A stretch of DNA of 64,000 nucleotides from Phytohabitans suffuscus (GCF_011764565.1 NZ_AP022871.1:2664320-2728319), one strand, 5' to 3'. Shown: positions 21,091 through 40,137, counted from the stretch's first letter. Numbers and translations are program-made. The notes: generated by a model not told the origin, from the sequence alone.

Positions 21091-21249
21091 CCGAACGCTC
21101 TCCTCCCAGCGGACCCATACGTTCGTACCAGAGATGTTCGTGCAGCTGAGCCACTAATTCTGGGGCGGCGGACCCCCTAATCCCCTAACCCGGAAACCCG
21201 GCGCGGTCCCCGATGCCCGGGGGATCACCGCACTCCTACGGTCTGCGAC

Positions 21250-22158
21250 ATGGAATCGACCCAGACACTGCACGACTTCGTGCTTAACCTCCTCACCAAC
21301 CCTGAGGCGCGCTCGGCGTTCGAGCTGGACCCAGAGGGCACGCTGAACGCCGCGGGGCTCGGTGACATCACCGCCGCGGACGTGCAGGACGTGGTCCCCC
21401 TGGTCGTGGACTACGCGCCCGTACAGGGGATCACCGGCCTGGTCCCGGGCGACCTGGGCTTGGGCCAGATCGGCGCGCTCGACGGTGACGCCACCAACGT
21501 GATCGGCCAGCTCCAGACGGTCACCCAGCAGCTTTCCGCCGGCGTACCCACCCCCAGCGCCGACGCCAACGTCAACGTCGCCGCGGTCGGCGCGATCACC
21601 GTCGACACCAGCGGTGTCAGCCTCGCGACCACCGGGCTCATCCCCGGTCTCGGCGTCGCGGCCAGCACGTCCGGCGCCTCGGTCGACCTCTCCGGCGCGC
21701 ACGACCTGGCCGGCACGCTCGACTCCGACATCGTCGGTACGGTCGGCGCGGACGCGACCGGCACGGTCGACGCGACGCTGGGCACGGCCACCGGCCTGGT
21801 CCCGGGCGCGCCGGTGGACAGCGTGCTCGGCACCACCGACGACACCCTGGGCACCGTCGACGCGCAGCTCGACGGCGTGACCGGCCTGGTCGGCTCGCTG
21901 ACCGCCCCGCTCGGCGTCCCGCCGGTCGACCTGCCGGAGCTGGACGACACCCTGGGCAACGACTCGCTGCTGGGCGGCGCCACGGGCACTGTGAACAGCA
22001 CGCTCGACGGCGTCGGCGTGGGCGGCATCCTCGGCGGCGGCGCGGAGGCGCACGGATCGGCGAGCGCGGCCGGCCTGCACGGCACGGTCCACGGCTCGGC
22101 GAGCGCCGACGCGCACGCCAACGGCGGCCTGCTCGGCGTCACCGACATCCTGTTCTGA
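21250..22158 (+). CDS. iniB: IniB N-terminal-domain protein with Gly/Thr/Val-rich repeats
   Basis: N-terminus MESTQTLHDFVLNLLTNPEARSAFELDPEGTLNAAGL matches the conserved IniB N-domain. The remainder is a low-complexity G/A/T/V repeat as in mycobacterial IniB. Confidence 0.65.
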   Translation: MESTQTLHDFVLNLLTNPEARSAFELDPEGTLNAAGLGDITAADVQDVVPLVVDYAPVQGITGLVPGDLGLGQIGALDGDATNVIGQLQTVTQQLSAGVPTPSADANVNVAAVGAITVDTSGVSLATTGLIPGLGVAASTSGASVDLSGAHDLAGTLDSDIVGTVGADATGTVDATLGTATGLVPGAPVDSVLGTTDDTLGTVDAQLDGVTGLVGSLTAPLGVPPVDLPELDDTLGNDSLLGGATGTVNSTLDGVGVGGILGGGAEAHGSASAAGLHGTVHGSASADAHANGGLLGVTDILF

Positions 22159-22265
22159 ACCCGTCCGGAGAACCAGGCGTCACGGCTGGTTCTCGCAGCG
22201 TCACCGCGGTGCCAGGGATGGGAGGCCGGACTCGGGCCCGGCCTCCCATCCCACTTGATATATGA

Positions 22266-24110
22266 GTGGAAATCAGCAGACTTGGTCCGGTGATGGCACC
22301 GATCTGGCTCGACACCCTCGACGAGACGGCTCGGGTATGCGCGGCGCACAGCCGCACCGACCTCGTCCGGCGCCTCCTGCAAAAGCGGGAGCAGCTGCTG
22401 GACCCCACCCTGCGGGTGCTTGTCGTCGGCGAGCCCAAGCAGGGCAAGAGCCAGCTCGTCAACGCACTGATCAACGCGCCGGTCTGCCCCGTGGGCGACG
22501 GCCTGACCACCGCCATCCCCACGGTCGTGCGGCACGCGGAGACGCCCTCGGCGGCCCTGGTGCACGAGGGGGACGAAGACGAGCGCGTGCCGATGCCGGT
22601 GGCCGACATCGCCGCCCGGATCAGCGCCACGACCCCGGGCCGCCGGCCGGGCGTGAGCGAGGTGCACGCCGAGATCGGTGTCCCTCGTGGACTCCTGGCG
22701 AGCGGCATCGTGCTCATCGACACCCCCGGAGCGGACGGCGACGACCCGACCACCGGCAGCGGTGTGTCGGCCCTCCCCCGCGCCGACGTCGTCGTGATGG
22801 TCACCGACGCGACCCGCGAGCTCTCCGTCTCCGAGGTCAACCTGCTGCTGCACATCGTCCAGTCGCACCCGCGGGTGGTCGTCGCGCTCACCAAAATCGA
22901 CATCTCGCCGCACTGGCGCGCGGTCGCCGAGCGCAATCGGGAGCACCTCGCGAGCGCCGGCGTGCCCGCCGTGCTCGTGCCGGTGTCGGCGACGCTGCGG
23001 CTGCAGGCCGCGCGCACCAACGACAAGGCGGTCAACGCGGAGTCCGGCTTTCCGGACCTGATCGCCCGGCTCAAGCGGGAGCAGGGCGCCAAGGGGCAGG
23101 TGCTCGCGCCGGCCGCGGTGGGGCTGATCGCGAGCACGGTCGTCGAGCAGCTCGCCGCGCCGCTGCGCGCCGAGCTGTCCACTGAGGACTCCGGCTCCCT
23201 GCACCGGCTGTACGAGGCGCAGCGCGGGCTCGACGAGCTGCGCCGCTGCTCCACCCGCTGGCAGAACACGCTGGCCGACGAGATGACGGATCTGATCTCC
23301 GACATGGAGTACGACCTGCGCGACCGCACGCGGCAGATCATGCGCAAGGTCGACGAGGCGTTCGAGACGGCCGACCCGCTGAAGACCTGGGACGACTACC
23401 AGGCGTGGATGGAGCAGAGCCTGACCGAGGCGGCCGAGGCCAACTTCGCCTGGCTGCTGCAACGCTGCGACTGGGTCACCGGACGGGTCGCCGACCACTT
23501 CGTCCGGTACGGGGCCGACATCCTCCCCGAGTGGCGGGCCGGCATCCCGGACCGGCTGGCCGAGCAGCTGGAGGAGCTCGAGCGGCCCAGCGTGGAAAAG
23601 TTCACGCCGGTGCAGAAGGTCTTCAGCGGCCTCCGCGGCTCGTACGGCGGCCTGCTCATGTTCGGCCTCGCCACGACGCTCGCCGGCATGCCGCTGATCA
23701 ACCCGGTCTCGCTCGGCGCGGGCGCGCTCTTCGGCGGCAAGACCATCCGCGACGAGGGCAAGACGATGCTGCGCCGGCGGCAGGCAACCGCCAAGATGGC
23801 CTCGCAGCGGCACGTCGACGACTTCTTCCTCCGGCTCAACAAGGAGTGCAAGGACACCGCGCGGTGGGTGCAGCGGGCGCTGCGCGACCACTTCACCGGG
23901 CTGACCGAGCAGCTGCAGGAGGCGATCGTCCACTCGCTGCGCAGCGCCAAGCAGGCCGCGGACGCCGACGCGCTGGAGCGCGAGCAGCGCAAGCGGGAGG
24001 TGCAGCAGCAGATGCGCCGGCTGGCCGCGCTGTACGACCGGGCGCAGGCCCTGACCGCGCTGGGTGGCTCCCCGGCACAGCCGCAGCGCCGCCTGGAGCC
24101 CGTCGGATGA
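22266..24110 (+). CDS. iniA: Dynamin-like GTPase, IniA-like
   Basis: G1 GEPKQGKS, G3 DTPG, G4 TKID; 614 aa; long helical stalk. Start may instead be the ATG at 22293. Confidence 0.75.
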   Translation: MEISRLGPVMAPIWLDTLDETARVCAAHSRTDLVRRLLQKREQLLDPTLRVLVVGEPKQGKSQLVNALINAPVCPVGDGLTTAIPTVVRHAETPSAALVHEGDEDERVPMPVADIAARISATTPGRRPGVSEVHAEIGVPRGLLASGIVLIDTPGADGDDPTTGSGVSALPRADVVVMVTDATRELSVSEVNLLLHIVQSHPRVVVALTKIDISPHWRAVAERNREHLASAGVPAVLVPVSATLRLQAARTNDKAVNAESGFPDLIARLKREQGAKGQVLAPAAVGLIASTVVEQLAAPLRAELSTEDSGSLHRLYEAQRGLDELRRCSTRWQNTLADEMTDLISDMEYDLRDRTRQIMRKVDEAFETADPLKTWDDYQAWMEQSLTEAAEANFAWLLQRCDWVTGRVADHFVRYGADILPEWRAGIPDRLAEQLEELERPSVEKFTPVQKVFSGLRGSYGGLLMFGLATTLAGMPLINPVSLGAGALFGGKTIRDEGKTMLRRRQATAKMASQRHVDDFFLRLNKECKDTARWVQRALRDHFTGLTEQLQEAIVHSLRSAKQAADADALEREQRKREVQQQMRRLAALYDRAQALTALGGSPAQPQRRLEPVG

Positions 24111-24120
24111 AGCACCCCGC

Positions 24121-25548
24121 GTGACTTCGGTACTCGAAGAGTCGGTGTGGCGCCTCATGCACGGGGCGCTCGACCTCTACCACGACAGCCCGCCCGCCGC
24201 CGAGCAGCTCCGCCACCACCTGAGCCGGTTCGACGAGCCGCTGCGCATCGCCATCGCGGGGCCCTGGCAGGCGGGCAAGTCCACATTGGTCAACGCGATC
24301 GTCGGCGAGGAGGTCGCGCCCATCGAGGTGCCGGACGCCGAGCAGGTCTTCACCTGGTACCAGGACGGCCCCGAACCGCACGCCACCGCCTACCCGGCGG
24401 GGATCGAGCTGCCGGTCGCCCGGACCGCCAACGGGCTGCGGGTGGACATCCGGCGGTGGCGGCCGGCACCGGTGAACGACCTGGTTATCACCTGGCCGAG
24501 CCGGGCACTGCGCAACGCCACCCTTGTGGACACTCCGGCGCTGCCCGACTCCGGCGACAAGGTGCTGCGGGACGCGGACGCGGTGCTCTACCTGACCCGT
24601 GACGGGCGCGGCACCGACCTGGAGTGGCTGGAGTCGGCGCAGGACGGCACGGTCGCGCGGGCCGCCCCGGTCAACGTGATCCTCGTGCTCTCCCGCGCCG
24701 ACGAGATCGGCGGCGGCCGCATCGACGCGCTGCTCGCCGCCAAGCAGCTCGCCCGCAAGCACCACCGCGACCACCACGTCGGCTCGCTCTGCCTCGCGGT
24801 GGTGGCGCTCGGCGGCCTGGTCGCGCTCGCCGGCCGGGTCCTCGGCGACCGCGACTACACAGCACTGTCCACACTGGCCGGTACCCCGCGCCCGGAGCTG
24901 GAGCCATATTTGCTCACCACCGACCGGTTCGTGGGTGAGGACTTTCCCGCGCCGGTCGACGTGCGGACCCGGGAGGACCTGCTCGACCGGCTCGGCATCT
25001 TCGGCGTACGGCTGGCCACGACGCTGATCCGCGCCGGCACGGGCACCGACACCCGGGCCGGGCTGGCGGCCGAGCTGGTGCGCCGCAGCGGCCTGAGCGA
25101 GCTGCGCGAGGCGGTCGGCCGGTGCTTCGTCGACCGGGCCGACGCGCTCAAGGCCCGCTCGGCGCTCGCCGCGCTGGAGGCCGTGCTCCGCACCGAGCCC
25201 CGGCCGGGCAGTGAAAAGCTCCTCGCCGACCTGGAACACACGCTGACCAACGCGCACGACTTCCGCGAGCTGCGGCTCGTCGCGGCGCTCCAGGGCCACC
25301 GGATCAAGTTCGGCGCGGAGCTGGAGGCCGAGGCGCGGCGGCTCGTCGGCGAGGGCGGCACCTCGCCCGCGACCCGGCTGGGCGTCGACCCGCGCACGAA
25401 CCCGGGCCAGCTGTGGGAGCTGGCCTCGGGCGCGCTGGCCCGGTGGCAGGAGCAGACCGAAGACCCCCTGCTGAGCCTGGAGCAGCGCCGGGCCGCGGCC
25501 GTCGTCGTGCGCAGCTGCGAAGGCATCCTGCACGCTCTGTCGTCGTAG
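24121..25548 (+). CDS. iniC: Dynamin-like GTPase, IniC-like
   Basis: G1 GPWQAGKS, G3 DTPAL, G4 SRAD; GTG start 10 nt after the iniA stop; 475 aa. Confidence 0.7.
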   Translation: MTSVLEESVWRLMHGALDLYHDSPPAAEQLRHHLSRFDEPLRIAIAGPWQAGKSTLVNAIVGEEVAPIEVPDAEQVFTWYQDGPEPHATAYPAGIELPVARTANGLRVDIRRWRPAPVNDLVITWPSRALRNATLVDTPALPDSGDKVLRDADAVLYLTRDGRGTDLEWLESAQDGTVARAAPVNVILVLSRADEIGGGRIDALLAAKQLARKHHRDHHVGSLCLAVVALGGLVALAGRVLGDRDYTALSTLAGTPRPELEPYLLTTDRFVGEDFPAPVDVRTREDLLDRLGIFGVRLATTLIRAGTGTDTRAGLAAELVRRSGLSELREAVGRCFVDRADALKARSALAALEAVLRTEPRPGSEKLLADLEHTLTNAHDFRELRLVAALQGHRIKFGAELEAEARRLVGEGGTSPATRLGVDPRTNPGQLWELASGALARWQEQTEDPLLSLEQRRAAAVVVRSCEGILHALSS

Positions 25549-25603
25549 CGGATCGACCGCCGCGCCGCCGGCGGCGTCGAGGTCTGCGGCCCGCCGCGGT
25601 TTC

Positions 25604-25632
25604 TCGACATCCACCAGCCGCGCGATGTCGAG
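25604..25632. terminator. Hairpin 55 nt downstream of iniC
   Basis: ctcgacatc ... gatgtcgag, 9-bp arms with a 12-nt loop; no T-tract. Confidence 0.25.
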
Positions 25633-25709
25633 AATCCGGCGCTGGCTGCGTCCCAGGGAGGTAGCGTCCCACGACGGGCCGCACCACGAGGAGTATGGAG
25701 GGCGTAGCG

Positions 25710-26054
25710 GTGAGCGAGATTCAGGGTATCGCCCGGTTCAGGTTTCACGAGGGCCTGATCGGGGAGTTCAAGCGCCTGTCCGAGGAGTGCATGGAGATCG
25801 TGCGGGCCAAGGACACCGGGACCCTGCAGTACGAGATCTACTTCAACGACGACCAGTCCGAGGCCATCGTCCTCGAGCGGTACCGGGACTCCGAGGCGCT
25901 CGTCGAGCACCTGGCGAACGTCGGTCACCTCATGGAGGCGATCCTCGCGACGGCCTCGGTCTCCGGCGAGGTCCTCGGTGAGGCGAACGCCGAGCTACGA
26001 GCGATGCTGGCCGGCAGCGAGGTCCGCCTCTTCGCGCCCTTCCAGTCGATGTAG
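25710..26054 (+). CDS. Antibiotic-biosynthesis-monooxygenase (ABM/Dabb) family protein
   Basis: About 114 aa ferredoxin-like ABM pattern (IARFRFHEG...LERYRDSEALVEH). I prefer the GTG at 25710 (GGAGGG 7 nt upstream) over the ATG at 25695. Confidence 0.55.
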   Translation: MSEIQGIARFRFHEGLIGEFKRLSEECMEIVRAKDTGTLQYEIYFNDDQSEAIVLERYRDSEALVEHLANVGHLMEAILATASVSGEVLGEANAELRAMLAGSEVRLFAPFQSM

Positions 26055-26055
26055 C

Positions 26056-29000
26056 TCAGGATACGGGGCCCTGGATGCGGTCGGCGGCGCGTTCTATCGC
26101 CGACTCGACCGCTCCGACCCGGTCGGCGAGCAGGCCCACGGCGCCGACGGCGCGACTCATCGGGTCGTCCTCGGCGCCGCCGAGGGCCTTGGCCTTCAGG
26201 TAGCCGGCCTTCACCTCGTCCCACCGGGCGGCCCGCTCCGGAGTGAGCCGGCCACGCAGCTCGGCCAGCTTGAGCAGGTTGGCCTCGGCGTTGGCGGCCA
26301 GCGTCTGCGCCTCGCCCAGGTAGTGGTCGTCGATGACCGCGTCCAGCTCGGCGTCGTTCATCACCGGCACGATCCGCTCGGCCAGCTTGTTCATGTTTCG
26401 GTACGAGCCCTGCAGCTGGTACGGCGGCTCGGTGCGGGACGCGTCGGACTGGGCGGCCGAGGCGATGTACGCCAGGTTGTTGGTGAGCACCACCTGCTGC
26501 ACCCGGAGCAGCTTGCGCAGCACCGCGAGGATCTGATCCAGCTCGACCGCCGAGTACGGGTGGGCGAGCTGGTCGGGGCGCACCGACCCGTCACCCTTGG
26601 CGAGCCGCACGAGCAGCTCCAGGTCGCTACGGTCCCTTGTGGACAGCGCGGCGAGCACCTGGTTGGCGGTCAGCGAGTTTTCGATGTAGCTGAGCGCGAA
26701 GAGCTGCTCCTTGCCGGAGAGCACGTCGCCGAGGTTCCACACGTCGGCGCGGTTGGCGAGCATGTCCGGGATCCGGAAGCGCTTGCCCGACTCCGTGTAC
26801 GGGTTGCCCGCCATGCACACCGCGAAGCGCTTGCCCCGCAGGTCGTACGTGCGGGTGCGCCCCTCCCACACACCCTCCATCCGGCGCTGCGCGTCGCAGA
26901 GCGAGATGAACTTCTGCAGCAGCTCCGGCGAGGTGTGCTGGATGTCGTCGAGGTAGAGCAGCACGTTGTTGCCCATCTCCAGGGCGAACGAGATCTTCTC
27001 CACCTCCTGCCGGGCGGTGGCGTTGGGCGCCTCGGCCGGGTCGACGGAGGTGACCGCGTGCCCCAGGGCCGGGCCGTTCACCTTGACGAAGACCAGGCCG
27101 AGGCGGCTCGCCACGTACTCCATCAGGGTGGTCTTGCCGTAGCCGGGCGGCGAGATGAGCAGCAGCAGGCCCATCTGGTCGGTGCGCTTGGCGTCACCCA
27201 CCGCGCCGAGCTGGCGGGCCAGGTTGTCGCCGATCAGCGGCAGGTAGACCTCGTCCAGCAGCCGGTTGCGGACGAACGCGCTCATCACCTTCGGCTGGTG
27301 CTCGGCGAGGCGCAGGCGGGTGCGCTCGCGCGCGATGAGGTCGTTGCGCTGCCGCTGGTACGCCCGGAAGGCCGGCACCCGCTCGTCGCGGAAGCGGCGG
27401 ACGCGGGTGAGCGCCTCGTCGAGCCGCAGCTCCAGCTGGCGGCTCGCGATCCGCGGGTGGGTGCCGAGCAGACCCTCCACAGTGGCCGACAGCACCGCCG
27501 ACGAGTCGTGGCGCGGCAGGTCGGCGCCGCACAGCTCGATGGCGATCGCCTCGGGCAGCTCGGGCGCGGGCTTTTCGCCCACGAACGCGTCGAGCCAGGC
27601 CGACACGAGCTGGTGCCGCGCGGCCAGGTCACCGCCGAGCGCGCGCAGGTCGTCGTCGAACGACTCCACCTTCGGCCCGCCGAGGGCGCGGTGGAAGCGG
27701 TCGAGCAGTTCGCGGGCGCCGGCGCTGGTGACGAAGCCGGAGGGCGCGCTCGCCAGCTCCTCGAAGAGGTACTCGCCGGCGAGGTGGCCGTCCAGCGGGA
27801 GGCGTCGTTCGCCCAGGAAACGGCCGACCGCCCCGGAGAGCTCGGCGGTCAGCTCCGCGATCGCCGGTCCCGGGCCGAACGCCGCGCGGGCCCGGGCCAT
27901 CGAACCGGCCCGCGTGGACCATGCGCCGCGGGACGCCTCGTCGGTGCCGTACGCCCAGAAGAGCTGCGCGGCGGCACGGGCGACCGGCGGGTAGCGCAGC
28001 AGCCCCGCACCGGCGTGCAGGCGGAGCAGCGCGTCGAGGATCGCGGCCGCGTCCTGGTCGTGCACGCCCCGCTCGTACCCCTCGTCGTAGCGCGTCTCGG
28101 CCGCACGCCGCACCAGGTCGCGCAGCCCACCCTCGGCGACGGCCACCTCGTGCAGGTCGTCCAGGTCGCCGTCGAGCAGGATCGACGCGGCGAGGAACTC
28201 GGCCCGGTACACCTCCGGCGTCTCCGAGACCAGCAGCTGCTCCCAGTACGGCCGGGTGGCCTCGAACGCCTCGTCGCGCACCGCCGCCCGGTAGTCGGTG
28301 CCGGTGACCGCGACCGCCATCCGGCCGTCGTGCGGCACGAGCGTGAGGTCGATCGCCTGGGTGTTGACCGCGAAGCGGTGCCGGCCCAGCGCGATCGTCT
28401 CGCCACCGTCGCTGTAGAGGTCGAGCCGGTCGCGCAGGCTCCGGCCGGCCTCCTGGCGGGCCGCCTTGATCCGGCCGTCCAGCTCCTCGGCGCGCACCGC
28501 GTCACCGAGGTCGCGCAGCTCCTGCGCCACCGAGCGGAGCTTGGCCACCATGGGGTCGCCGGCGAAGTACGTGTTGACCTCGTCGATCGTCTTCAGCGTG
28601 GCGATCCGCCGCTGCACGCTGGCGAGGATGCGGTCGGCGGAGTCGACCAGCCGGTCGGAGCGGCGGGCCCGCTCGTCCAGCAGCGCCTGCTTGCGCGCGG
28701 AGAACACCTCGTAGACATCGGTGCGCTTGGCACCCAGGTCGGCCAGGAAGTCGTCGAACTCGCCGAACCGCGACTCCAGGTTTTCCAGCTGTAGCAGCAG
28801 CCGGCCAAGCTGCTCGTCGCAGCGCTCCGGGGTGTCGGCGACCGCGAGCGCGCCGGTGATCGCCTGGCCGAGCAGCGCGAACTCGGCCGCGAACTCGGCC
28901 CGCCCCTCGGTGGCGAGCAGCTCCTTGCGCCGACCCTCCAATGTGGCCCGGGCGCGGTTGACGCCGCCCAGCACCTCGCCGATCCGCTCCAGGATCGAGG

Positions 29001-30969
29001 TGCGCACGGTCGCGTCGGCGATGTCGAGCGAGCCGACCACCTCGGTGATGACCTGCATCCCCTCGGCCTGCGCGGCGAGCCGCTGGCCGAGCGGCTCGGC
29101 CGCCGCGACGGTCCGGATGCCTCCGGCGTCGGCGACCAGCCGCTCGATCTCGCTGTGGTAGCCGGCGAACGCGTCGTCCCGCCGCAGGAACGACACCGCG
29201 CGCTGGGCGGCGGAGGCCAGCTCCTCGTCGAGTACCCGGGAAAGCTCGTCGATCCGCGCGGTGTCCACATAGCGCAGCTCGCGGATCGTCACCAGGTGGC
29301 CCTGCGCCGAGCGGAGGTCGGCCAGCTGCGTCACCCAGCCGTCCGTCGACTGTGGAGCCTCGCCGCGCGTGCGCCGGACGAGGGACTGGATCCCCGCGGC
29401 GGCCTCGTCCAGCGCGGTGGCGGCCTGCTCGGTGAGCGCCTGCACCTTTTCGAACTCGTCCAGCACCTGCTCGGCGGTGGACCGCACCTCCGACAGCGGC
29501 GTACGCAGGTCGCCCAGCTCCGGCTCGCCCAGCCAGTGGTAGTGGTCGAAGATGCGGGCGCAGGTGGCGATCAGGCTCTCGAACACACCTGTCGAGGGCT
29601 TCATCTCGTCGGTCATCCGGGCCACCGAGAGGCAGTCCGAGATGCCGCGCACGAGGTCGGCGTTGCCCACCCGCTCCAGCGGCCCGGTGCCGACCGGCTG
29701 GGCCGCGGCGTACGTGTCCGACAGGTAGGGCGTCTGCCACACCTGCATCGGGTGCACCCGGGTCGGCTCCTCGGAGGTGGCCCGGAACACGACAAGCGTC
29801 CCGTCGTCGAAGAGCGAGTAGCCGTGGCACGGGATCGGCGTGGCGACCTCTTTGCGGATCACGTTGTACGGCAACAGCAGCGAGCGCCCCTCGGCCCGCG
29901 CGTGGAAGACGTAGAGCACGTCTTCGCCGTTGGTGGAGCGGATGACCTGGTCGAACTCCAGGCTCGCCACGTCGGTGTCGAACGTCTTGTTGACGCCGGT
30001 CGCCAGGTAGTAGCCGCCCGGGAAGATGATGCCGTGGTCCTCCGGCAGCCGCTGGCACGCCTGCCCGATGCCGTCGAGCCGCACCACCGTCCTGGTCCGC
30101 GTGTTGAAGACCAGGTGCCGCCAGACCGTCTCCCGGTACGGCCGCACGCGCAGCAGGATCAGCGGGCCGACCCGCGCGTAGTGGATGTCGGCGTCGGCGA
30201 GGCTCTGCAACGGCTCCTCGACCGGCTCGGCGTAGATGCCCTCGCCGGTCTCGGTGTTGTTCTCCACCTTGACCGTCAGGTTGCCGCCGACCGTCTCGAC
30301 GAAGACCTCGTCGCCGATGGAGATGTGCGGGTGGCGGCCGAGCACGTGGTTTTCCCGCGTCGTCTCCACCCACTCGAAGTCGTGGGCCGGGGGAAACGTG
30401 TGGTCGCGCTCGCCCCGGTTGTCTATGTAGGACACCGCGCCGTCGTTGCCGACCTGCCACCGCAGCACGCGGATGTCTTCGAGGTTGGGCCCGGTCTGGA
30501 AGATGGCGAGCAGCCGCCCGTCGAGCCGGCGCAGCTGGAGCAGCCGGGTCTCCCGGTAGTACCGGTACAGCTCGCCGAAGTCGCGCAGGAACTGCTGCTC
30601 GCGCAGCCACGGCACCTCGGCCGCCGGCTCGAAGCGGAACGCCTCGCCGTCGCGGCTGAAGGCGTGCACCGCGAACACGTCGTCGACGGTGGTCTCCGGC
30701 TTCAGCCCGATGAAGACGTTGTAGCCGAAGAGCATCAGCCCGCCGATCGACACGATGTCGCGCGGGACGCAGTTGTTCTCCGTACGGATCCGCTCGGTGC
30801 CGACCAACCGCATCTCCGCGCTGCCGAACACCTCCAGGCGGTGCGCGTTGAGCGCCTCCGCCCGGCGGGCCAGCTCCGCCGACCGGTCGGCCAGCCGCGT
30901 GCGCAGGACCTCGTAGGTGCCGACGTCCAGCGCGGGCGCGGCCGCGGCTTTCTCGTCGACCTGGGTCAC
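26056..30969 (-). CDS. Large (1637 aa) protein with C-terminal AAA_5 (MoxR/dynein-related)-type ATPase domain, translationally coupled to flotillin
   Basis: Walker A ISPPGYGKTT, Walker B LLYLDDIQ, then AVCMAGNPY...GKRFRIPDMLANRA, the AAA_5 pattern. N-terminal ~1200 aa has no recognised motif and is partly helical. GTG start overlaps the flotillin stop (GTGA). Uninterrupted 4.9-kb frame. Confidence 0.7.
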   Translation of the reverse strand: MTQVDEKAAAAPALDVGTYEVLRTRLADRSAELARRAEALNAHRLEVFGSAEMRLVGTERIRTENNCVPRDIVSIGGLMLFGYNVFIGLKPETTVDDVFAVHAFSRDGEAFRFEPAAEVPWLREQQFLRDFGELYRYYRETRLLQLRRLDGRLLAIFQTGPNLEDIRVLRWQVGNDGAVSYIDNRGERDHTFPPAHDFEWVETTRENHVLGRHPHISIGDEVFVETVGGNLTVKVENNTETGEGIYAEPVEEPLQSLADADIHYARVGPLILLRVRPYRETVWRHLVFNTRTRTVVRLDGIGQACQRLPEDHGIIFPGGYYLATGVNKTFDTDVASLEFDQVIRSTNGEDVLYVFHARAEGRSLLLPYNVIRKEVATPIPCHGYSLFDDGTLVVFRATSEEPTRVHPMQVWQTPYLSDTYAAAQPVGTGPLERVGNADLVRGISDCLSVARMTDEMKPSTGVFESLIATCARIFDHYHWLGEPELGDLRTPLSEVRSTAEQVLDEFEKVQALTEQAATALDEAAAGIQSLVRRTRGEAPQSTDGWVTQLADLRSAQGHLVTIRELRYVDTARIDELSRVLDEELASAAQRAVSFLRRDDAFAGYHSEIERLVADAGGIRTVAAAEPLGQRLAAQAEGMQVITEVVGSLDIADATVRTSILERIGEVLGGVNRARATLEGRRKELLATEGRAEFAAEFALLGQAITGALAVADTPERCDEQLGRLLLQLENLESRFGEFDDFLADLGAKRTDVYEVFSARKQALLDERARRSDRLVDSADRILASVQRRIATLKTIDEVNTYFAGDPMVAKLRSVAQELRDLGDAVRAEELDGRIKAARQEAGRSLRDRLDLYSDGGETIALGRHRFAVNTQAIDLTLVPHDGRMAVAVTGTDYRAAVRDEAFEATRPYWEQLLVSETPEVYRAEFLAASILLDGDLDDLHEVAVAEGGLRDLVRRAAETRYDEGYERGVHDQDAAAILDALLRLHAGAGLLRYPPVARAAAQLFWAYGTDEASRGAWSTRAGSMARARAAFGPGPAIAELTAELSGAVGRFLGERRLPLDGHLAGEYLFEELASAPSGFVTSAGARELLDRFHRALGGPKVESFDDDLRALGGDLAARHQLVSAWLDAFVGEKPAPELPEAIAIELCGADLPRHDSSAVLSATVEGLLGTHPRIASRQLELRLDEALTRVRRFRDERVPAFRAYQRQRNDLIARERTRLRLAEHQPKVMSAFVRNRLLDEVYLPLIGDNLARQLGAVGDAKRTDQMGLLLLISPPGYGKTTLMEYVASRLGLVFVKVNGPALGHAVTSVDPAEAPNATARQEVEKISFALEMGNNVLLYLDDIQHTSPELLQKFISLCDAQRRMEGVWEGRTRTYDLRGKRFAVCMAGNPYTESGKRFRIPDMLANRADVWNLGDVLSGKEQLFALSYIENSLTANQVLAALSTRDRSDLELLVRLAKGDGSVRPDQLAHPYSAVELDQILAVLRKLLRVQQVVLTNNLAYIASAAQSDASRTEPPYQLQGSYRNMNKLAERIVPVMNDAELDAVIDDHYLGEAQTLAANAEANLLKLAELRGRLTPERAARWDEVKAGYLKAKALGGAEDDPMSRAVGAVGLLADRVGAVESAIERAADRIQGPVS

Positions 30970-33035
30970 TTGGCGTTCAGCTCGGCGAGGGGGGCGTCCG
31001 CGAGGCCGAGCCGCTTGGCGGCCTGGAGCAGCTCCTTCAGCTTCGTCGAGTCGGCGTTGCCGGCCTTGATCTGCTGGAGCAGGAACGCGGAGAGCGTCAG
31101 GTTCTGCACATCGCCGGTGTTGAGCGACCTGAGCAGCTCGGCGAGGTCCTTGGTGAAGTCGGCCGAACCCTCCAGCCACGGCTTGGCGAGCGCCTGCGCG
31201 ACGTCGGAGTGGCCGACGAAACCGTCGACCGCCTTGCCCGCGGCGATCGAGCTCATCAGCCGGTCGAAGAAGACGCTGTCGCCGCCGACGATGTCGATGT
31301 TCGCCTTCTCCAGGCCCTTCGACACGACGCTCGCCTGCGACTCGGCGATCTGCCGCTGCACGTCCAGGCCGGCGAGCCGGATCTCCTTCTCCGCCTCCAG
31401 CCGCAGGCGGTACTCCTCGTGCTCGCGGGTCGCCTCGTCGAGCGCGGCCATCGCGGCGGCCTTCTCGGTGAGACCCTCGGCCTCGCCCTTCAGCTTTTCG
31501 CGCACCGCGTCGGCCAGGGCCAGGGCCTTCTCCCGCTCGACCGTGGCTTCGGCCTTGCCGACCTTCTCCGCGCCCTCGGCCGCGGCGAGCGCCTTCTCCC
31601 GCTCCACGGCCGCCTCGGCGCGACCCACCTTCTCGATGGCCACCGCGTCCCGCTCGCGCACCTGCACGTCGGCCAGGCCGGCCGCGGCCGCCTCGGCCTG
31701 CACGCCCTCGGCCAGCCGGATCTTCGCCCGGGTGTCGAGCTCGGCCGCCTGCTGCCGGGCTTCGGCGAGCACCAGCGCCTCGCGCGCCTTGTGCTTGGCC
31801 GCCTGCTCCGCCGCCTCGGCCGCCTTGATGTCCTTGACCAGCGCCTCCTGCGCCTCGGCCTCGGCCTGGATGACGGTCGCCTGGCGCACCCGCTCGGCCT
31901 CTTCGACCACGCGCAGGCGCTTGATGTTCTCCTCCTGCTCGGCGACGGTCTTTTCGACCGCGATCCGCTCGCGGACCACCTCGGCGATGGACCGCTTCTC
32001 GGCCTCGACCTCCTTGTCCTTGGAGATCGTGGTCAGCTCGGTCTCCCGCTGCCGGGAGATGACCTCCAGCATGCGGTCCTTTTCGATCCGCTCGGTCTCG
32101 ATCGCGATGACCCGTTCCCGGTTCTTCTCCGCGACCGCGATCTCCCGCGCCTTGTTCTCCGCCTGGACGCCCAGCTGCTCCTCGGCCCGGAGGTTGGCGG
32201 CCTCGGCCTTCTGCCGCTCCTCCGCGCGCACCCGGGCGATCTCCGCCTCTTCGCGCGCCCGCATCGTCTCGACCTCGCGGCGCTGCTTGATCTCCGCCTC
32301 GGCCTGCTGGCGCTCCAGCTCCAGGATCGCCTGGCGGGCGTCGACGTTCTGGCGGGTGATCTCCTTCTGCTCGGTCTTCTGGAACTCGTTGGTCCGCACG
32401 TGCTCGATCGCGGTCAGCTCGGTGATCTTCCGGATGCCCTGCGCGTCGAGGATGTTGGCCGGGTCGAGCCGCGACATCGGCGTCTGCTCCAGGAAGTCGA
32501 TGGCCGCGTCCTCGAGGCTGTAGCCGTTGAGGTCGGTGCCGATCACCGCGATGATCTGGTCGCGGAACTCGTCGCGCTTGGTGTACAGGTCGACGAAGTC
32601 GAGCTGCTTGCCGACGGTCTTCAGCGCCTCGGAGAACTTCGCGTTGAACAGCTCCTGCAGCGTCTCCTGGTCGCTGGCCCGTGCGGTGCCGATCGCCTGC
32701 GCCACCTTGATGACGTCTTCGGTGGTCTTGTTGACCCGCACGAAGAACGTGATTTTGATGTCGGCCCGGATGTTGTCGCGACAGATGAGCCCCTCGTTGC
32801 CGGTGCGCTCGATGTCGATCGTCTTGACCGAGATGTCCATGATCTCGGCCTTGTTGAAGACCGGCAGCACGACCGCGCCGGTGAACGTGACGTCGACCTT
32901 CCGGATCTTCGAGATGATGAGCGCCTTGCCCTGCTCCACCTTGCGGAACAGCCGGCTCACCATGAAGAGCAGCACGATGACGACGAGCAGTACGACGGCG
33001 ACGAGCACGCCGAAGCCGGTGGTGATGGCGTCCAT
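30966..33035 (-). CDS. Flotillin-family SPFH/band-7 protein (FloT/YqiK-like)
   Basis: N-terminal TM, SPFH domain, and a long EA-rich coiled coil with repeated AEAE/ERQKAE heptads; 689 aa. RBS GAGGGA 6 nt upstream of the ATG. Confidence 0.85.
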   Translation of the reverse strand: MDAITTGFGVLVAVVLLVVIVLLFMVSRLFRKVEQGKALIISKIRKVDVTFTGAVVLPVFNKAEIMDISVKTIDIERTGNEGLICRDNIRADIKITFFVRVNKTTEDVIKVAQAIGTARASDQETLQELFNAKFSEALKTVGKQLDFVDLYTKRDEFRDQIIAVIGTDLNGYSLEDAAIDFLEQTPMSRLDPANILDAQGIRKITELTAIEHVRTNEFQKTEQKEITRQNVDARQAILELERQQAEAEIKQRREVETMRAREEAEIARVRAEERQKAEAANLRAEEQLGVQAENKAREIAVAEKNRERVIAIETERIEKDRMLEVISRQRETELTTISKDKEVEAEKRSIAEVVRERIAVEKTVAEQEENIKRLRVVEEAERVRQATVIQAEAEAQEALVKDIKAAEAAEQAAKHKAREALVLAEARQQAAELDTRAKIRLAEGVQAEAAAAGLADVQVRERDAVAIEKVGRAEAAVEREKALAAAEGAEKVGKAEATVEREKALALADAVREKLKGEAEGLTEKAAAMAALDEATREHEEYRLRLEAEKEIRLAGLDVQRQIAESQASVVSKGLEKANIDIVGGDSVFFDRLMSSIAAGKAVDGFVGHSDVAQALAKPWLEGSADFTKDLAELLRSLNTGDVQNLTLSAFLLQQIKAGNADSTKLKELLQAAKRLGLADAPLAELNAK

Positions 33036-33046
33036 GAGGGTCCCTC

Positions 33047-33636
33047 TTATCCGTGTGGTTCGGGGTGTGGGACGGGGTGACCCAGAAGAACTCCCCGTCG
33101 GCGTCGTAGTCGTAGATCAGCGCGGTCGTGCCGGCCTTGAACGTGTCGCTGCCGGTCTGCCGCACCTGGATGATCGCGGACGAACCGTCCGCGGAGGTAA
33201 CCTCCGCTTGGCCGAATGTCTGGCTGACCCGCCCGGTGCGGATGACACACACCGATCCGACGAAGTCGGCGCGGGACGCCTCAGGCCCGGTGGGAAAGAG
33301 CCGCCGCAGCGGAATCACGAGCAGCCGCGTGGCGAGCCACGCCAACGCGAGCGCCACGAGCAACGCGAGGATCGCGAGCAACAGCACACCGCCGGAAATC
33401 ACCGTGCCGGCGAGGCTGAGGAACCAGGCGATCGCGATCAGAAGCGAGGCGGTGACGGCGACGGGCACCCCGGCGAACCCGAGACCGCCCAACACGTCAC
33501 CGTCGCCGTCGAAGTCGAGGGCCTCGATGTCGAGCGCACCGAGAAGCACCAGGATCCAGTAGCCGACGACGACCACGAGGAGGAAAGTGAACAGCACAGC
33601 CGGGAAACCGAGCGCCGCGTCCACAAACTCACCCAT
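33047..33636 (-). CDS. NfeD-like (YqiJ/YuaF-type) membrane protein with C-terminal OB/beta-barrel; stop hidden by a probable homopolymer indel
   Basis: Three TM helices, then GSVCVIRTGRVSQTFGQAEVTSADGSSAIIQVRQ...ALIYDYDADGEFFWVTP. The observed frame has no stop and runs into flotillin. The neighbouring frame gives TAA 12 nt before the flotillin ATG if one C is restored in a C4 run. Confidence 0.6.
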
Positions 33637-33737
33637 CGGCCCGCGCCTACCCCCGCTGCGAAAGTGCCCAACCCGTAGTCAGGATCATGACATGGCTGGT
33701 CAACCCCTGGCAGCACCGGCCCGGGTGGGCAAGGGCC

Positions 33738-34734
33738 TCAGCGGCCGTCGAGCAAGGGTTGGCGGGGATCCCAGGGCTCGCCGCCGCGGCGGCGGGCGAT
33801 CGCGGACAGGGCCTCCAGCACGACGCGGTTGCCCAGGTAGGCCGTGATGTCGGCGTGGTCGTACGGCGGGGAGACCTCGACCACGTCGACGCCGACGACC
33901 GGCAGCTCCAGGCAGCAGCGCCGGACCGCGTCGAGCAGCTGGCGCGCGGTCAGCCCGCCTGGCTCCGGGTGCCGGTGCCGGGCGCCATGCCGGGATCCAC
34001 CACGTCGATGTCGACGGACAGGAAGACACCCTCGCACCCGTCGACCGCGATCCCGAACGCCTCGGTCAGGCACTCGTCGACGCCGCGGGCCACGATCTCG
34101 CTCATCTCGTACGAGCGCATGCGCCGCTCGGCCATCCAGCTCAGCACGGCAGGGCCGGGCCAGTAGCCGCGCAGTCCAATTTGGAGGAAGCGGTCGCCGC
34201 GGATGGCGCCGGACTCGATGAGGCGGCGCATCGGGAGGCCGTGGCCGTACAGCGAGCCGAACTCGATCTCGCCGGTGTCGGCGTGCGCGTCGAAATGCAC
34301 CATCGACACGTTGCCGTAGCCGTGGTGCCGGGCCACACCCTTGGCGTCCGGCAGGGTGATGGAGTGGTCGCCGCCGAGCACCAGGGGATCGCGCCGGACG
34401 CGGCCACCGCCGCGACCGCCTCCTCCAGCGCGCCCAGCGCCCGCTCGATGTCGCCGCTGAACATCTCGACGTCGCCGGCGTCGTACACCTTCAGGTCGCG
34501 CAGGCCGTCGGTGCGCAGCGCGAGCGACGGACGGCTGCCGTCGTGTTCGAGATAGCACGCCTGGCGCATCGCGGTCGGCCCGAAGCGGGTGCCGGGACGG
34601 TTGGTGGTGCCGCCGTCGAAGGGCGCGCCGACGATGACGACGTCGGCGTCCGCGTACGACTCCGGCGCGCCGATGTCGCATCGCTCGACCCCGAGAAACG
34701 TCACGTCCGGACCGAACATCGGGCCGTACCTCAC
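33738..34734 (-). CDS. speB: Agmatinase/arginase-family ureohydrolase; two apparent -1 frameshifts
   Basis: Pieces in three frames join collinearly: ...NRPGTRFGPTAMR...ASGAIP | LVLGGDHSITLP...HFDAHADTG...SVDIDVVDPGMAPGTGT | PEPGGLT...VGVDVVEVSPPYDHADITA. Both junctions lie at C/G runs (about 34385 and 33975). GTG start overlaps the upstream stop (GTGA). Confidence 0.7.
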
Positions 34735-35933
34735 CGCTCCTCCATCCCCCACGGCGAGCCGTACCCGGTCAGCAGGTCGAGGAACGGCCGGGCCGGGAAC
34801 GCCTCCGGGCCCAGCACGCCGGTGCCCGACCAGGTGCCGGCGGCGAGCAGTTCGAGCGCGACGATCGGGTTGATGGCGGTCTGCCACACGACGGCCTGGT
34901 GACCGTACTCGCGCATCGACCACTCGTTGTCGACCACGTGGTAGAGGTAGACGGCGCGCGGCCCGCCGGACTTTCCGGTGCCGCGCACCCACGTGCCGGC
35001 GCAGGTCTTGCCGCGCATCTTGTCGCCGAGCGTGGCCGGGTCGGGCAGGCAGGCGGCGACCACGTCGCGCGGCGCCACCGACACCCCGCCCACCCGCACC
35101 GGGTCGGTGCCGTCCAGGCCGAGCTTGTGCAGGATACGGAGCACGTCGATGAACTCGCTGCCCAGCCCGTACTTGAACGTGACCCGCTTGGCGTCGACCC
35201 AGCGCGGGATCAGCAGCACCTCTTCGTGCTCGACGTTGACGCACTCGACCGGGCCGATGCCCTCCGGGAAGTCGAAGACCTCCGGCTCGGAGAACGGCTC
35301 GGTGGTGTGCCAGCCCTTGCCCGCCTCCCAGATCACCGGCGGGTTGAGGCACTCCTCGATGGTGGTCCAGATGGAGAAGGAGGGCGCGAAGTCGTACCCG
35401 TCCACGACCAGGTTGGCGCCGTCACGCACACCGATCTCGTCGATCTCGCTGAAGAGCTCGTCGGCCGCGTACCGCGCGAAGACGTCGGAGAGGCCCGGCT
35501 CGACGCCCATGCCGACCAGCGCCAGCCGCCCGCTCCGCGCCCACCGCTCGGCCTGGGCGAACTGGTCGTCGCCGAGCTTCACGCCGGTCTGCGCGTGCGG
35601 CCGCTCGGGGTGCGGCTTGGACAGCGACATCGCCATGTCGAGGTAGCCGGCGCCGGCGGCGTACGCGCCGTCGAAGATGGGCATGACGAACCGCGGGTCG
35701 ACCGCGTTGAGCACGTGGGTGATGCGGTGCTCGCGGCAGAGCGCGGCCACCGCCTCGGCCGAGGAGGCGTCGACCCGGGCCGCCGTGAAGCGGTCGTCCA
35801 CAGTGGATACCGCGCGGGCGGCGCGGTCCGGGTCGTAGTCGGCGACCACCATCGCCTCGAAGAACTCGCGGCGGGCGGCGATGGGCACGGCGGCCGAGCC
35901 CACCCCGCCGGCACCGACCAGCAGGATGCGCAT
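34731..35933 (-). CDS. Saccharopine-dehydrogenase-family NAD(P) oxidoreductase (homospermidine/carboxynorspermidine-synthase-like)
   Basis: N-terminal Rossmann MRILLVGAGGVGSA; 400 aa; ATGA overlap with potC. Confidence 0.7.
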   Translation of the reverse strand: MRILLVGAGGVGSAAVPIAARREFFEAMVVADYDPDRAARAVSTVDDRFTAARVDASSAEAVAALCREHRITHVLNAVDPRFVMPIFDGAYAAGAGYLDMAMSLSKPHPERPHAQTGVKLGDDQFAQAERWARSGRLALVGMGVEPGLSDVFARYAADELFSEIDEIGVRDGANLVVDGYDFAPSFSIWTTIEECLNPPVIWEAGKGWHTTEPFSEPEVFDFPEGIGPVECVNVEHEEVLLIPRWVDAKRVTFKYGLGSEFIDVLRILHKLGLDGTDPVRVGGVSVAPRDVVAACLPDPATLGDKMRGKTCAGTWVRGTGKSGGPRAVYLYHVVDNEWSMREYGHQAVVWQTAINPIVALELLAAGTWSGTGVLGPEAFPARPFLDLLTGYGSPWGMEER

Positions 35934-36721
35934 CAGACGGCCCTCCTCCGGCGTACCGACGTGCCGAGCACGAGCAGCAGCGCGATCAGGAACATCGCGG
36001 TGCCGATGACGTTCACCTCCGGCGGGATGCCACGCTGGGCGGCGCCCCAGACGTACATCGGGAACGTCACCGTGGTGCCCGAGTTGAAGTTCGTGATGAT
36101 GAAGTCGTCGAACGACAGCGAGAACGCCAGCAGCGCGGCCGCGACGATGCCCGGCAGGACCAGCGGCAGCGTCACCTTGCGGAAGGTCTGGAGCTCGCTG
36201 GCGTACAGGTCCATCGCCGCCTCCTCCAGCCGGCTGTCCAACCCGGACAGTCGCGCCTTAACGGTGACGACGACGAACGAGACGCAGAACATCACGTGCG
36301 CGATGACCACCGTCCAGAAGCCGAGCGGCAACCCGCCGGCCACGAAGAGCGCGAGCAGCGAGGAGCCCATCACCACCTCGGGCGTCGCCATCGGCAGGAA
36401 GATGAGCAGGTTTGTCGCGCCACGGCCGCGGAAGCGGTGGCGTACGAGCGCGAACGCCATCAGCGTGCCGAGAAGCGTGGCCACGACGGTGGCGATGAAG
36501 CCGATCTGCACGCTGCGCACGACCGCGTCACACATGTCGCCCGGACCGCAGGGGTTGGTCCAGTTGTCCAGGGTGAACTTGTTGAAGTCGTACGACAGGC
36601 GGCTCGACGGCTCGTTGAACGAGAGCCCCACGACCACGGCGATGGGCAGGAAGAGGTAGGCGAGGACGAGCACGCCCACGCCCATCACCCAGTGGTCGGA
36701 CAGCCAGCGCCCGAGTCTCAT
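35933..36721 (-). CDS. potC: Spermidine/putrescine ABC transporter permease
   Basis: MRLGRWLSDHW...; EAA-like loop region; six TM; ATGA overlap with potB. Confidence 0.75.
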   Translation of the reverse strand: MRLGRWLSDHWVMGVGVLVLAYLFLPIAVVVGLSFNEPSSRLSYDFNKFTLDNWTNPCGPGDMCDAVVRSVQIGFIATVVATLLGTLMAFALVRHRFRGRGATNLLIFLPMATPEVVMGSSLLALFVAGGLPLGFWTVVIAHVMFCVSFVVVTVKARLSGLDSRLEEAAMDLYASELQTFRKVTLPLVLPGIVAAALLAFSLSFDDFIITNFNSGTTVTFPMYVWGAAQRGIPPEVNVIGTAMFLIALLLVLGTSVRRRRAV

Positions 36722-37631
36722 CAGAGCACCTCGTCCGTTCCGGCCCGCTTCACGTACACGAACACCATCGCCAGGATGATCGCCATCAGGATGAACGACA
36801 GGGCCGCCGCCTGCGGGTAGTCGAGCCGTACGAGGAAGGCGGAGTCGATCACGTTGCCGATCATGTACTGGTTGGGCGTGCCGAGCAGCTCCGCGTTGAT
36901 GTAGTCGCCGGCCGCGGGGATGAACGTGAGCAGCGTGCCGGCCACCACGCCGGGCATCGACAGCGGCAGCGTCACCTTGGCGAACGCGCGCACCGGGCTC
37001 GCGTACAGGTCGTTGGCCGCCTCCAGCAGCCGGCCGTCGAGGCGGTCCAGGCTGGCGTAGAGCGGCAGCACCATGAACGGCAGGAAGTTGTAGGTCAGGC
37101 CGAGCACCACCGCCGCCGACGTCGCCAGCACCCGGCCGTCGGAGCCGACGACGCCGATGTCGCGCAGGATGCCGACCACGAAGCCGTTGTCCGACAGGAT
37201 CGTCTTCCAGGCCAGCGTGCGCACGAGAAAGCTGGTGAAGAACGGGGCGATGACGCAGACCAGCATGAGGTTCTTGAAGCGGGTGGCCTTCTGCGCGATC
37301 GCGTACGCCAGCGGGTAGCCCAGCAGCAGGCAGAGCAGCGTGGCGATGCCCGCGTAGACCAGCGAGCGCACGAAGTGCGGCCAGTACGCGGAGAGCGCGT
37401 CGGCGTAGTTGCCGAACTCCCACGTCATCGCGTACCCCGTCTGCAGCGACCCGTTCGGGTCGTACAGGCTGGTGGCGGCGAGCTGCACCGCGGGCACCGC
37501 GAAGAAGACGGTCAGCCACAGGCCGCCGGGAGCAGCAGCAGGTACGGCAGGAGCCGCCGCCCCTTCCGCGGGGGCGGTGGAGGTGTCTCATGTGGACCGA
37601 CGGCGGTGCCGATGTGCCCTACGACACTCAC
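36721..37631 (-). CDS. potB: Spermidine/putrescine ABC transporter permease; apparent -1 frameshift near 37527
   Basis: N-terminus ...RKGRRLLPYLLLLP in one frame continues GGLWLTVFFAVPAVQL... in the next. GTG start overlaps the potA stop (GTGA). Confidence 0.7.
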
Positions 37632-38754: not shown

Positions 38755-38764
38755 CTCTCCGCCA

Positions 38765-39988: not shown

Positions 39989-40137
39989 GTGCGACTCCAG
40001 GGTGGTTCGCGAGAATGCTTCGTACGATCCGACGCCTGATCCTGGCATGATGTATGCCCAGTCACAAGGATTCCGTTGCAGAAGAGCCAATTCGCAACGA
40101 AATACGAACGTAACAGTGCTCTCGCAGGAGGCAACGG

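Follow-up and report, generated by a model that had tools for sequence, protein, structure and literature searches.

A stretch of 64,000 nucleotides (nt) of the Phytohabitans suffuscus genome (GCF_011764565.1, NZ_AP022871.1:2664320-2728319; G+C content about 72%), hereafter the window, encodes three co-directional genes on its minus strand, each with a composition of the coding type (G+C at third codon positions of 0.89-0.97). From upstream to downstream these code for a predicted YqiJ/YuaF-type (NfeD-like) membrane protein (gene 1), a predicted flotillin of the YqiK type with an SPFH domain (gene 2) and a giant protein that combines the DUF3686 and DUF7902 domains with an AAA+ ATPase core (gene 3; Table 1). 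The trio is a real, conserved and tightly linked three-gene module that recurs across phyla; it has already been described, with the role of its ATPase mechanistically uncharacterised, and what is new here is the actinomycete, minimal member of the described operon class.

Genes 2 and 3 occupy the intervals proposed for them in an earlier note on this DNA, made from the sequence alone, which had read them as a flotillin with a long coiled coil rich in E and A and as a 1637-aa protein with a GTG start, joined to the flotillin stop codon by a GTGA overlap. For gene 1 the same note proposed a model that is right biologically, in that the intact allele ends at the TAA it cited, but the interval it gave spans 590 nt, which is not a multiple of 3, and contains no in-frame stop in the window: the TAA is out of frame with the ATG at 33636, and the frame opened by this ATG runs on without a stop for 2526 codons, as far as 26056. 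Comparison by blastn with a second assembly of P. suffuscus (L001) showed that the two are identical across 16.9 kb apart from four homopolymers, each of which is one base shorter in the window, at ~34387, ~33969, ~33654 and ~33074-33077. Two of these lie in the upstream agmatinase gene, whose open reading frame (ORF) they break (243 aa in the window versus 332 aa in L001), one is intergenic, and the last falls in a C-run near the end of gene 1, where the missing base frameshifts the last ~12 codons and removes the stop. With the base restored, as in the L001 allele, the product of gene 1 ends in ...WVTPVPHPEPHG-TAA. The homopolymer deletions, including the one responsible for the frameshift in gene 1, are likely to be assembly errors of the long-read type. 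The continuous 2526-aa ORF (26056-33636) was rejected as a real gene, because its composition over the flotillin gene is non-coding (G+C by codon position 0.38/0.97/0.71) and the frameshift is absent from L001.

The TAA of intact gene 1 is separated from the ATG of gene 2 by 11 nt, one fewer than had been counted earlier, and the GAGGGA motif reported in this region does lie just upstream of the ATG. This gap, the GTGA overlap and the lack of convincing terminators inside the trio in a consensus scan (itself uninformative) are sequence proxies for a possible co-transcription of the three genes in the window. The presumed promoter region contains a TTGACC hexamer, and a consensus scan of it recovered no sigma-70-type promoter.

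Scans of genes 1 and 2 against Pfam, NCBIfam and PADLOC returned only a weak match of gene 2 to the NCBIfam FloT model (E 0.003), and hhalign comparisons with E. coli YqiJ and YqiK were therefore used to place them. Hydropathy analysis of the gene 1 product reveals hydrophobic stretches at aa 3-41 and 48-111, corresponding to about three N-terminal transmembrane (TM) helices, and alignments point to a C-terminal β-rich domain with the motifs FVGxxCVIRTG...FGQAEV...ALIFDYD. Neither the window nor the L001 version of the protein has any Pfam match at E<=10, including to NfeD (PF01957) and YqiJ (PF21001/PF07290; YqiJ_N, YqiJ_OB), and a PDB profile search with the gene 1 alignment gave no matches; the Deinococcus orthologue matches Pfam NfeD with E 0.0078, under the cut-off. 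A shallow alignment of gene 1 (A2) was not significant against YqiJ (hhalign probability 9%); once deepened with orthologues from Pseudomonas, Hymenobacter and Deinococcus (A3, 16 sequences), and only with these, it reached significance (probability 90.4%, E 1.4e-6). Relatives in UniRef carry the name 'DUF1449 domain-containing', and the protein is 29% identical to P. aeruginosa BacC (tblastn E 1.9e-12). As judged from these comparisons, gene 1 encodes a membrane protein of the YqiJ/YuaF (NfeD-like) type that is the orthologue of P. aeruginosa BacC (PA3730).

The product of gene 2 begins with an N-terminal TM segment (aa 1-34, by hydropathy), followed by an SPFH domain (~aa 35-200), a charged coiled-coil region rich in E/A/K/R/Q (~aa 200-560) and a conserved C-terminal domain of the IDIVGGD type. 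It too lacks any Pfam match at E<=10, and hence matches neither Band_7 (PF01145) nor Flot (PF15975), and its alignment yielded no matches in a PDB profile search; its orthologue on pQBR103 clears the Pfam Band_7 cut-off comfortably (E 9e-11, 42.5 bits versus a cut-off of 23.6). With hhalign the gene 2 profile (A1) aligns with E. coli YqiK with a probability of 99.6% (E 7.8e-25, aa 5-301 against 10-304), and a separate profile of its C-terminus (A6) against the corresponding Flot domain of YqiK gives a probability of 0.9%. Database relatives are named 'flotillin family protein' or YqiK, and the identity to P. aeruginosa BacD is 48.6% (E 4e-166). Gene 2 is accordingly classed as a predicted divergent member of the YqiK-type flotillin/SPFH family, orthologous to BacD (PA3729). 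The identities assigned to genes 1 and 2 in the earlier note are thus borne out through hhalign, with neither protein passing a Pfam threshold.

The product of gene 3 is 100% identical to an NCBI protein of P. suffuscus. It has more than 6600 relatives in the database, with 72-78% identity across actinomycete families, and full-length homologues (41-50% identity over ~96% of the length) occur in records of Deinococcus, Pseudomonas, Proteus, Hymenobacter, Halomonas, Vibrio and Photobacterium, which span the Proteobacteria, Bacteroidota and Deinococcota. The P. aeruginosa homologue belongs to a single 90%-identity cluster of 3222 sequences, and the alignment of gene 3 with P. aeruginosa BacE (P0152) shows 49% identity over 1655 aligned positions. 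Hydropathy analysis detects no hydrophobic segment in the protein, in contrast to the membrane-anchored products of genes 1 and 2. These features identify gene 3 as a predicted cytoplasmic ATPase orthologous to P. aeruginosa BacE (PA3728 / PA14_16190).

The first ~1200 aa of this protein had been thought to match nothing recognisable; in fact Pfam finds DUF3686 and DUF7902 there, both domains of unknown function. The predicted layout of the N-terminal part comprises a helix (aa 18-48), a β-propeller-like domain (aa 54-412) and a long arm of helices (aa 418-850), such that the DUF3686 region spans the helix, the propeller-like domain and the start of the arm, and DUF7902 lies within the arm. 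An AlphaFold2 (AF2) model of aa 1-700 (window 28870-30969) retrieves β-propeller folds in Foldseek. The best match is the terminal domain plus linker of the clathrin heavy chain, and Vps11 and IFT-A are further matches with a propeller followed by helices, all with low template-modelling scores that signify architectural resemblance only. A second model, of aa 701-1637, has a predicted local distance difference test (pLDDT) score of 77.7. It includes, between the arm and the AAA+ core, a small domain of β-sheet and helices (aa ~875-1220, window ~27310-28345; pLDDT about 90) that has no Pfam model and no solved-structure analogue among the Foldseek matches listed.

The AAA_5 signature attributed to the large protein withstood the profile search, with a score above the Pfam cut-off (Table 1), and the classical Pfam AAA model also passes (27 bits, cut-off 21.2). 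Beyond this level the affinities of the core are generic: Foldseek matches are to RuvB, NorQ, MCM, dynein, HslU and ClpX (E 1.6e-3 to 4e-2), and a PDB profile search returned P-loop matches only. Matches to RuvB are confined to the P-loop and fall below threshold, with 21 bits for Pfam RuvB_N (cut-off 27), E 8e-5 for NCBIfam RuvB, whose models score far under their cut-offs (21.7 bits versus 282 and 20.3 versus 299), and E 0.017 for RuvB in the PDB over ~40 residues; the similarity is limited to the generic AAA+ core and is equalled by NorQ, MCM, HslU and ClpX. Pfam, NCBIfam and fold searches recognised no DNA-binding, nuclease or helicase domain in gene 3. Walker A, Walker B, the MAGNPY motif containing sensor 1 and the LANRAD motif are the same in all 33 actinomycete and proteobacterial sequences compared, and this conservation predicts ATPase competence. 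The Walker B motif has Asp-Asp in place of the usual Asp-Glu; given that this substitution is invariant in the 33 homologues, it is a family trait.

Table 1. Features of the trio and of the adjoining genes in the window (nt positions from the first letter of the window; aa positions in the gene 3 product)
Feature	Position	Strand	Remarks
Gene 1 (YqiJ/YuaF-type, NfeD-like)	33047..33636	-	196 aa in intact allele
C-run in gene 1	33074..33077	-	1 base shorter than in L001
TAA of intact gene 1	33049-33047	-	
GAGGGA, Shine-Dalgarno-like motif	33041..33046	-	5 nt upstream of gene 2 ATG; read from sequence
Gene 2 (flotillin/YqiK-type SPFH)	30966..33035	-	689 aa
GTGA, gene 2 stop / gene 3 GTG start overlap	30966..30969	-	
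Gene 3 (DUF3686 / DUF7902 / AAA+ ATPase)	26056..30969	-	1637 aa, GTG start
DUF3686 (PF12458)	29536..30876	-	aa 32-478, Pfam E 4e-226
DUF7902 (PF25472)	28921..29175	-	aa 599-683, Pfam E 4e-30; within long helical arm
AAA+ core	26788..27165	-	aa 1269-1394, Pfam AAA_5 29.5 bits, cut-off 22
Walker A, GYGKTT	27127-27144	-	aa 1276-1281
Walker B, LYLDDIQH	26935-26958	-	aa 1338-1345
Predicted β-hairpin before sensor 1			aa 1362-1381
Sensor 1 in MAGNPY, then LANRAD			aa 1386-1391; aa 1404-1409
Intergenic region, agmatinase gene to gene 1	33637..33738	-	~100 nt; presumed trio promoter region
IniB N-terminal-domain protein	21250-22158	+	
Dynamin_N protein	22266-24110	+	
Second, weak dynamin-like protein	24064-25548	+	
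ABM monooxygenase	25695-26054	+	between dynamin/IniB genes and ATPase gene
Truncated HSP70-like ATPase	19831-21090	-	
LuxR-family regulator, STAND-like NTPase N-terminus	17270-19834	-	

The linkage of flotillin and ATPase, whose conservation had been proposed as a check, is maintained over large phylogenetic distances. The comparison covered 80 genome loci, from Micromonosporaceae, Pseudonocardiaceae, Streptosporangiaceae, Thermomonosporaceae and Nocardiopsaceae, whose ATPase is a close relative of gene 3. In 79 of them the whole trio is present with its order unchanged, and the two loci without a component (L028 and L030) are both cut by contig ends. Of 74 actinomycete loci, 40 allow the 4-nt overlap between flotillin stop and ATPase start, and most of the others have a gap of 11 nt or less. 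We also inspected seven distant contexts, namely two loci of Pseudomonas and one each of Vibrio, Proteus, Hymenobacter, Deinococcus and a Streptomyces globosus plasmid; the flotillin gene directly precedes the ATPase gene in all seven, and all but the last also have the YqiJ-like gene and hence the complete trio. Copies are found on megaplasmids or plasmids (pQBR103, Deinococcus, Hymenobacter, Streptomyces). There is no conserved fourth gene: no other flanking family occurs in more than 18 of 78 loci. PspA adjoins the trio only in P. aeruginosa and Hymenobacter among the distant contexts, and is found beside it in none of the 79 actinomycete loci, nor in pQBR103, Deinococcus, Vibrio or Proteus; the 64-kb window contains no homologue of PspA or DUF2170. 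Similarly, a gene for a PLDc_2 (HKD phospholipase D-like, PLD) protein directly follows the ATPase gene only in P. aeruginosa (L086, 13260-13952; bacF) and Vibrio campbellii (L087, 11891-12547; 45% identity) among these contexts, and in none of the actinomycete loci. Given its presence in seven of seven distant contexts, as against the few with PspA or PLD, flotillin is the invariant neighbour of the ATPase.

The earlier note could map the combination of an NfeD-SPFH pair with a giant AAA+ protein to no described system. In fact, Ravi et al. (mSystems 2024, PMC11237479; preprint 2020) described an operon comprising a CesT/Tir-like chaperone, PspA, a band-7/flotillin protein, a β-propeller-coiled-coil-AAA+ protein and a 3-TM protein of the YqiJ/YuaF type, for which they predicted a role in sub-membrane dynamics and of which abbreviated versions devoid of PspA are more widely distributed; their table lists the same gene order in Dokdonia. 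The trio matches this architecture component by component, and the Hymenobacter locus, which has the full form, carries a full-length gene 3 homologue of 44.8% identity. The trio of the window differs from the full form in that the chaperone/PspA dyad is not beside it and so corresponds to the abbreviated version. That study is one of comparative genomics only and gives neither a structure of the ATPase nor a mechanism for it.

In P. aeruginosa, bacC-bacD-bacE has the order, orientation and domain content of the trio. The locus there encodes, in order, DUF2170, PspA, a 213-aa protein, a 688-aa protein, the 1746-aa ATPase, PLD, yaeQ, recJ and lasB, and from this gene order and the protein sizes in PMC2587700 it would correspond to PA3732-PA3727 (PA14_16140-16200). 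The bac cluster was named in PMC2587700. Reverse-transcription PCR (RT-PCR) established bacABCDEF as a six-gene operon, and in a bacA mutant the levels of BacB-F rise together by 6-13-fold (PMC10948618). A mutant of PA3731 (pspA-like) shows defects in biofilm formation, swarming and virulence, and osmotic shock induces the encoded protein (PMC2587700); PA3728 is among the genes recurrently mutated in cystic-fibrosis isolates (PMC8190622). The window differs in the absence of bacA (DUF2170, CesT/Tir-like), bacB (PspA/IM30) and bacF (PLD), and the promoter of the sigma-54 type that was proposed for Pseudomonas does not apply to its trio. The notion of a functional unit, advanced earlier for the window, is supported by the close spacing of the genes, their linkage across phyla and the co-transcription of the P. 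aeruginosa homologues.

More distant comparisons cover only parts of the trio. The E. coli yqiJ-yqiK and B. subtilis yuaF-floT pairs likewise combine a 3-TM protein bearing a C-terminal OB-like domain, which in gene 1 is a putative one, with a following flotillin of TM-SPFH-coiled-coil layout. They differ from the trio in that yqiK is followed by sibD/ibsD and not by a giant ATPase, and in the Pfam domains (Flot, Band_7, YqiJ_N and YqiJ_OB) that escape detection in genes 1 and 2. The MoxR/AAA_5 ATPases (RavA, NorQ, CbbQ) share with gene 3 a single AAA+ module, similarity at the AAA_5 level and a predicted β-hairpin before sensor 1, and NorQ is among the best fold matches of the core. MoxR systems typically have a VWA partner, whereas no VWA gene was present among the trio neighbours scanned. 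Vps4, acting on ESCRT-III, offers a conceptual likeness, that of an ATPase paired with a polymer forming a membrane scaffold, and differs in that no MIT-like domain was recognised in gene 3. Gene 3 is set apart from both MoxR and Vps4 by the ~1250 aa of propeller and helical arm N-terminal to its AAA+ core and by the Asp-Asp Walker B, and its similarity to any solved AAA+ structure is weak (E >= 1.6e-3).

In light of the above contextual connections, we consider it rather probable that the trio represents the PspA-associated flotillin operon in an actinomycete form that lacks PspA ('abbreviated'), with an ATPase that would remodel flotillin assemblies as part of a membrane-stress module. That it is of the bacCDE type can be held with high confidence; that remodelling of a flotillin scaffold is the mechanism by which the ATPase acts is a more speculative proposal, to which we assign somewhat less than an even chance. 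Under this proposal, the flotillin, anchored by its N-terminal TM segment and organised by the YqiJ-like partner, would build up an oligomeric scaffold at the cytoplasmic side of the membrane. The ATPase would oligomerise, probably into a hexamer, by way of its single AAA+ domain, dock on flotillin by means of its propeller and helical arms, and use ATP to assemble, disassemble or remodel the scaffold during envelope stress, analogous to Vps4 on ESCRT-III. Where it occurs, PspA would have an accessory part, as client or partner, and not an obligate one. A bolder version, which we put forward only tentatively and judge unlikely as a whole, would have the DUF3686 (BacE family) ATPase as a dedicated ATP-driven remodeller of flotillin scaffolds, a ~1-MDa hexamer that grips the coiled-coil or C-terminal domain of flotillin with propeller and arms and, with the YqiJ-like protein, constitutes a self-contained machine for membrane repair or microdomain turnover that works without PspA in actinomycetes.

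Several points weigh against the remodelling proposal. We infer physical contact between ATPase and flotillin from gene linkage only, and the literature searched held no experimental or biochemical work on the ATPase itself; the published phenotypes of the bac operon come from bacA and bacB mutants only and not from bacC, bacD or bacE. The AAA+ core was modelled with a pLDDT of only 50-70, and hence neither its AAA+ clade nor its oligomeric state is established. The Asp-Asp Walker B may entail slow hydrolysis, or a nucleotide-dependent switch instead of a motor. Finally, the Streptomyces globosus plasmid (L089; NZ_CP030864.1, 4574-11875) encodes flotillin and ATPase with no gene 1 homologue detectable by tblastn. 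The locus-tag numbering of this plasmid skips one gene at the position of gene 1, and an unlisted pseudogene could lie there.

The alternative that fares best retains the membrane setting and changes the client: the ATPase would be a Vps4-like disassemblase of a PspA/ESCRT-III polymer, flotillin would serve only to recruit it, and its target in actinomycetes would be a PspA whose gene lies at another place in the genome. The single operon that includes PspA and the CesT/Tir-like chaperone in P. aeruginosa, Hymenobacter and Dokdonia is consistent with this idea, as is the eukaryotic and archaeal precedent of Vps4 with ESCRT-III. It is harder to reconcile with the missing MIT-like domain and with the distribution of PspA, which is absent from the trio neighbourhood in the actinomycetes and in most of the distant contexts as well as from the whole window. 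Of the two, flotillin is in our view the more likely direct partner of the ATPase, because flotillin is the invariant neighbour and PspA is adjacent in only a minority of lineages; the PspA-directed role appears unlikely.

Another alternative sees in the trio an anti-phage or conflict system, in which flotillin/YqiJ would sense the perturbation of the membrane by phage and the AAA+ protein, MoxR-like as are those of several conflict systems, would activate an effector such as the downstream PLD/HKD protein of Pseudomonas and Vibrio. PA3728-PA3732 are up-regulated in every phage-infected sample of one study (PMC12041424). The plasmid-borne copies, the PLDc_2 gene after the ATPase in P. aeruginosa and Vibrio, and flanks that differ between genera would also fit a defence function, as would weak PADLOC matches of gene 3 at the level of the P-loop (mad8, E 2e-4; IetA, E 2e-3). 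Yet the Psp response to envelope stress, too, is classically induced by phage. No model of PADLOC-DB 2.0 matches gene 3 beyond the P-loop (E 2e-4 to 1e-2 over ~30-50 residues), and none matches gene 1 or gene 2. No effector gene accompanies the actinomycete trio, whose neighbours in the window are polyamine and IniBAC-like genes and not defence genes, and the high conservation of gene 3, both across actinomycete families and within the large P. aeruginosa cluster, resembles that of a vertically inherited housekeeping or stress gene and not that of a fast-turnover defence gene. A role in defence is consequently improbable in our estimation.

A function of the ATPase in DNA repair, with its linkage to membrane proteins being incidental or regulatory, is very improbable: the database names (Pfam calls DUF3686 'ATPase involved in DNA repair' and NCBI calls gene 3 'DNA repair ATPase'), the sub-threshold RuvB matches and the presence of recJ three genes downstream in P. 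aeruginosa stand against the generic nature of those matches, the lack of any recognisable domain for work on DNA, the fact that the only invariant partners are two membrane proteins, and a literature search that returned nothing on DUF3686 or PF12458 and nothing tying 'DNA repair ATPase' to flotillin. The large protein does not belong to a well-characterised family; membership of one whose function is unrelated to SPFH proteins had been raised earlier as a potential objection.

Two further gene clusters flank the trio in the window. Directly upstream and in the same direction lies a polyamine cluster (33740-40090, minus strand) with genes for a PotD-like binding protein, a PotA-like ATPase, two permeases, a carboxynorspermidine-synthase-like protein (below cut-off) and agmatinase (passing TIGR01230). 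Repeated coupling of PspA/CesT operons with polyamine genes was noted by Ravi et al. (PMC11237479), and on pQBR103 the trio comes after genes for DUF2491, DUF350, DUF1190 and a glutathionylspermidine-synthase-like protein; in actinomycetes a polyamine cluster adjoins the trio in Phytohabitans only. On the other side, a second membrane-remodelling module (17270-26054) converges on the ATPase gene. The dynamin-like, iniBAC-like module noted earlier as lying right next to the trio is therefore real, but it is convergent with it and separated from it by the ABM monooxygenase gene, and the link this proximity implied is not conserved outside Phytohabitans. Since conservation of the IniB/dynamin/dynamin/ABM, HSP70-like, LuxR and polyamine genes beside the trio is limited to this genus, a functional link of the trio to either cluster was rejected.

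It is an open question how bacterial flotillin/SPFH scaffolds assemble and turn over and what couples them to membrane repair, and these scaffolds have no established energy-consuming partner. If the bolder version of the proposal is true, the ATPase of the trio would be the first known to act on an SPFH scaffold. The trio is very widespread and unusually well conserved, and the operon that contains it in P. aeruginosa has effects on biofilm formation, swarming and virulence and responds to phage. The family-wide designation 'DNA repair ATPase' is unsupported and misleading, and should not be propagated. As the actinomycete version consists of three genes only, without PspA, chaperone or PLD, it provides a minimal system for testing direct action of the ATPase on flotillin.

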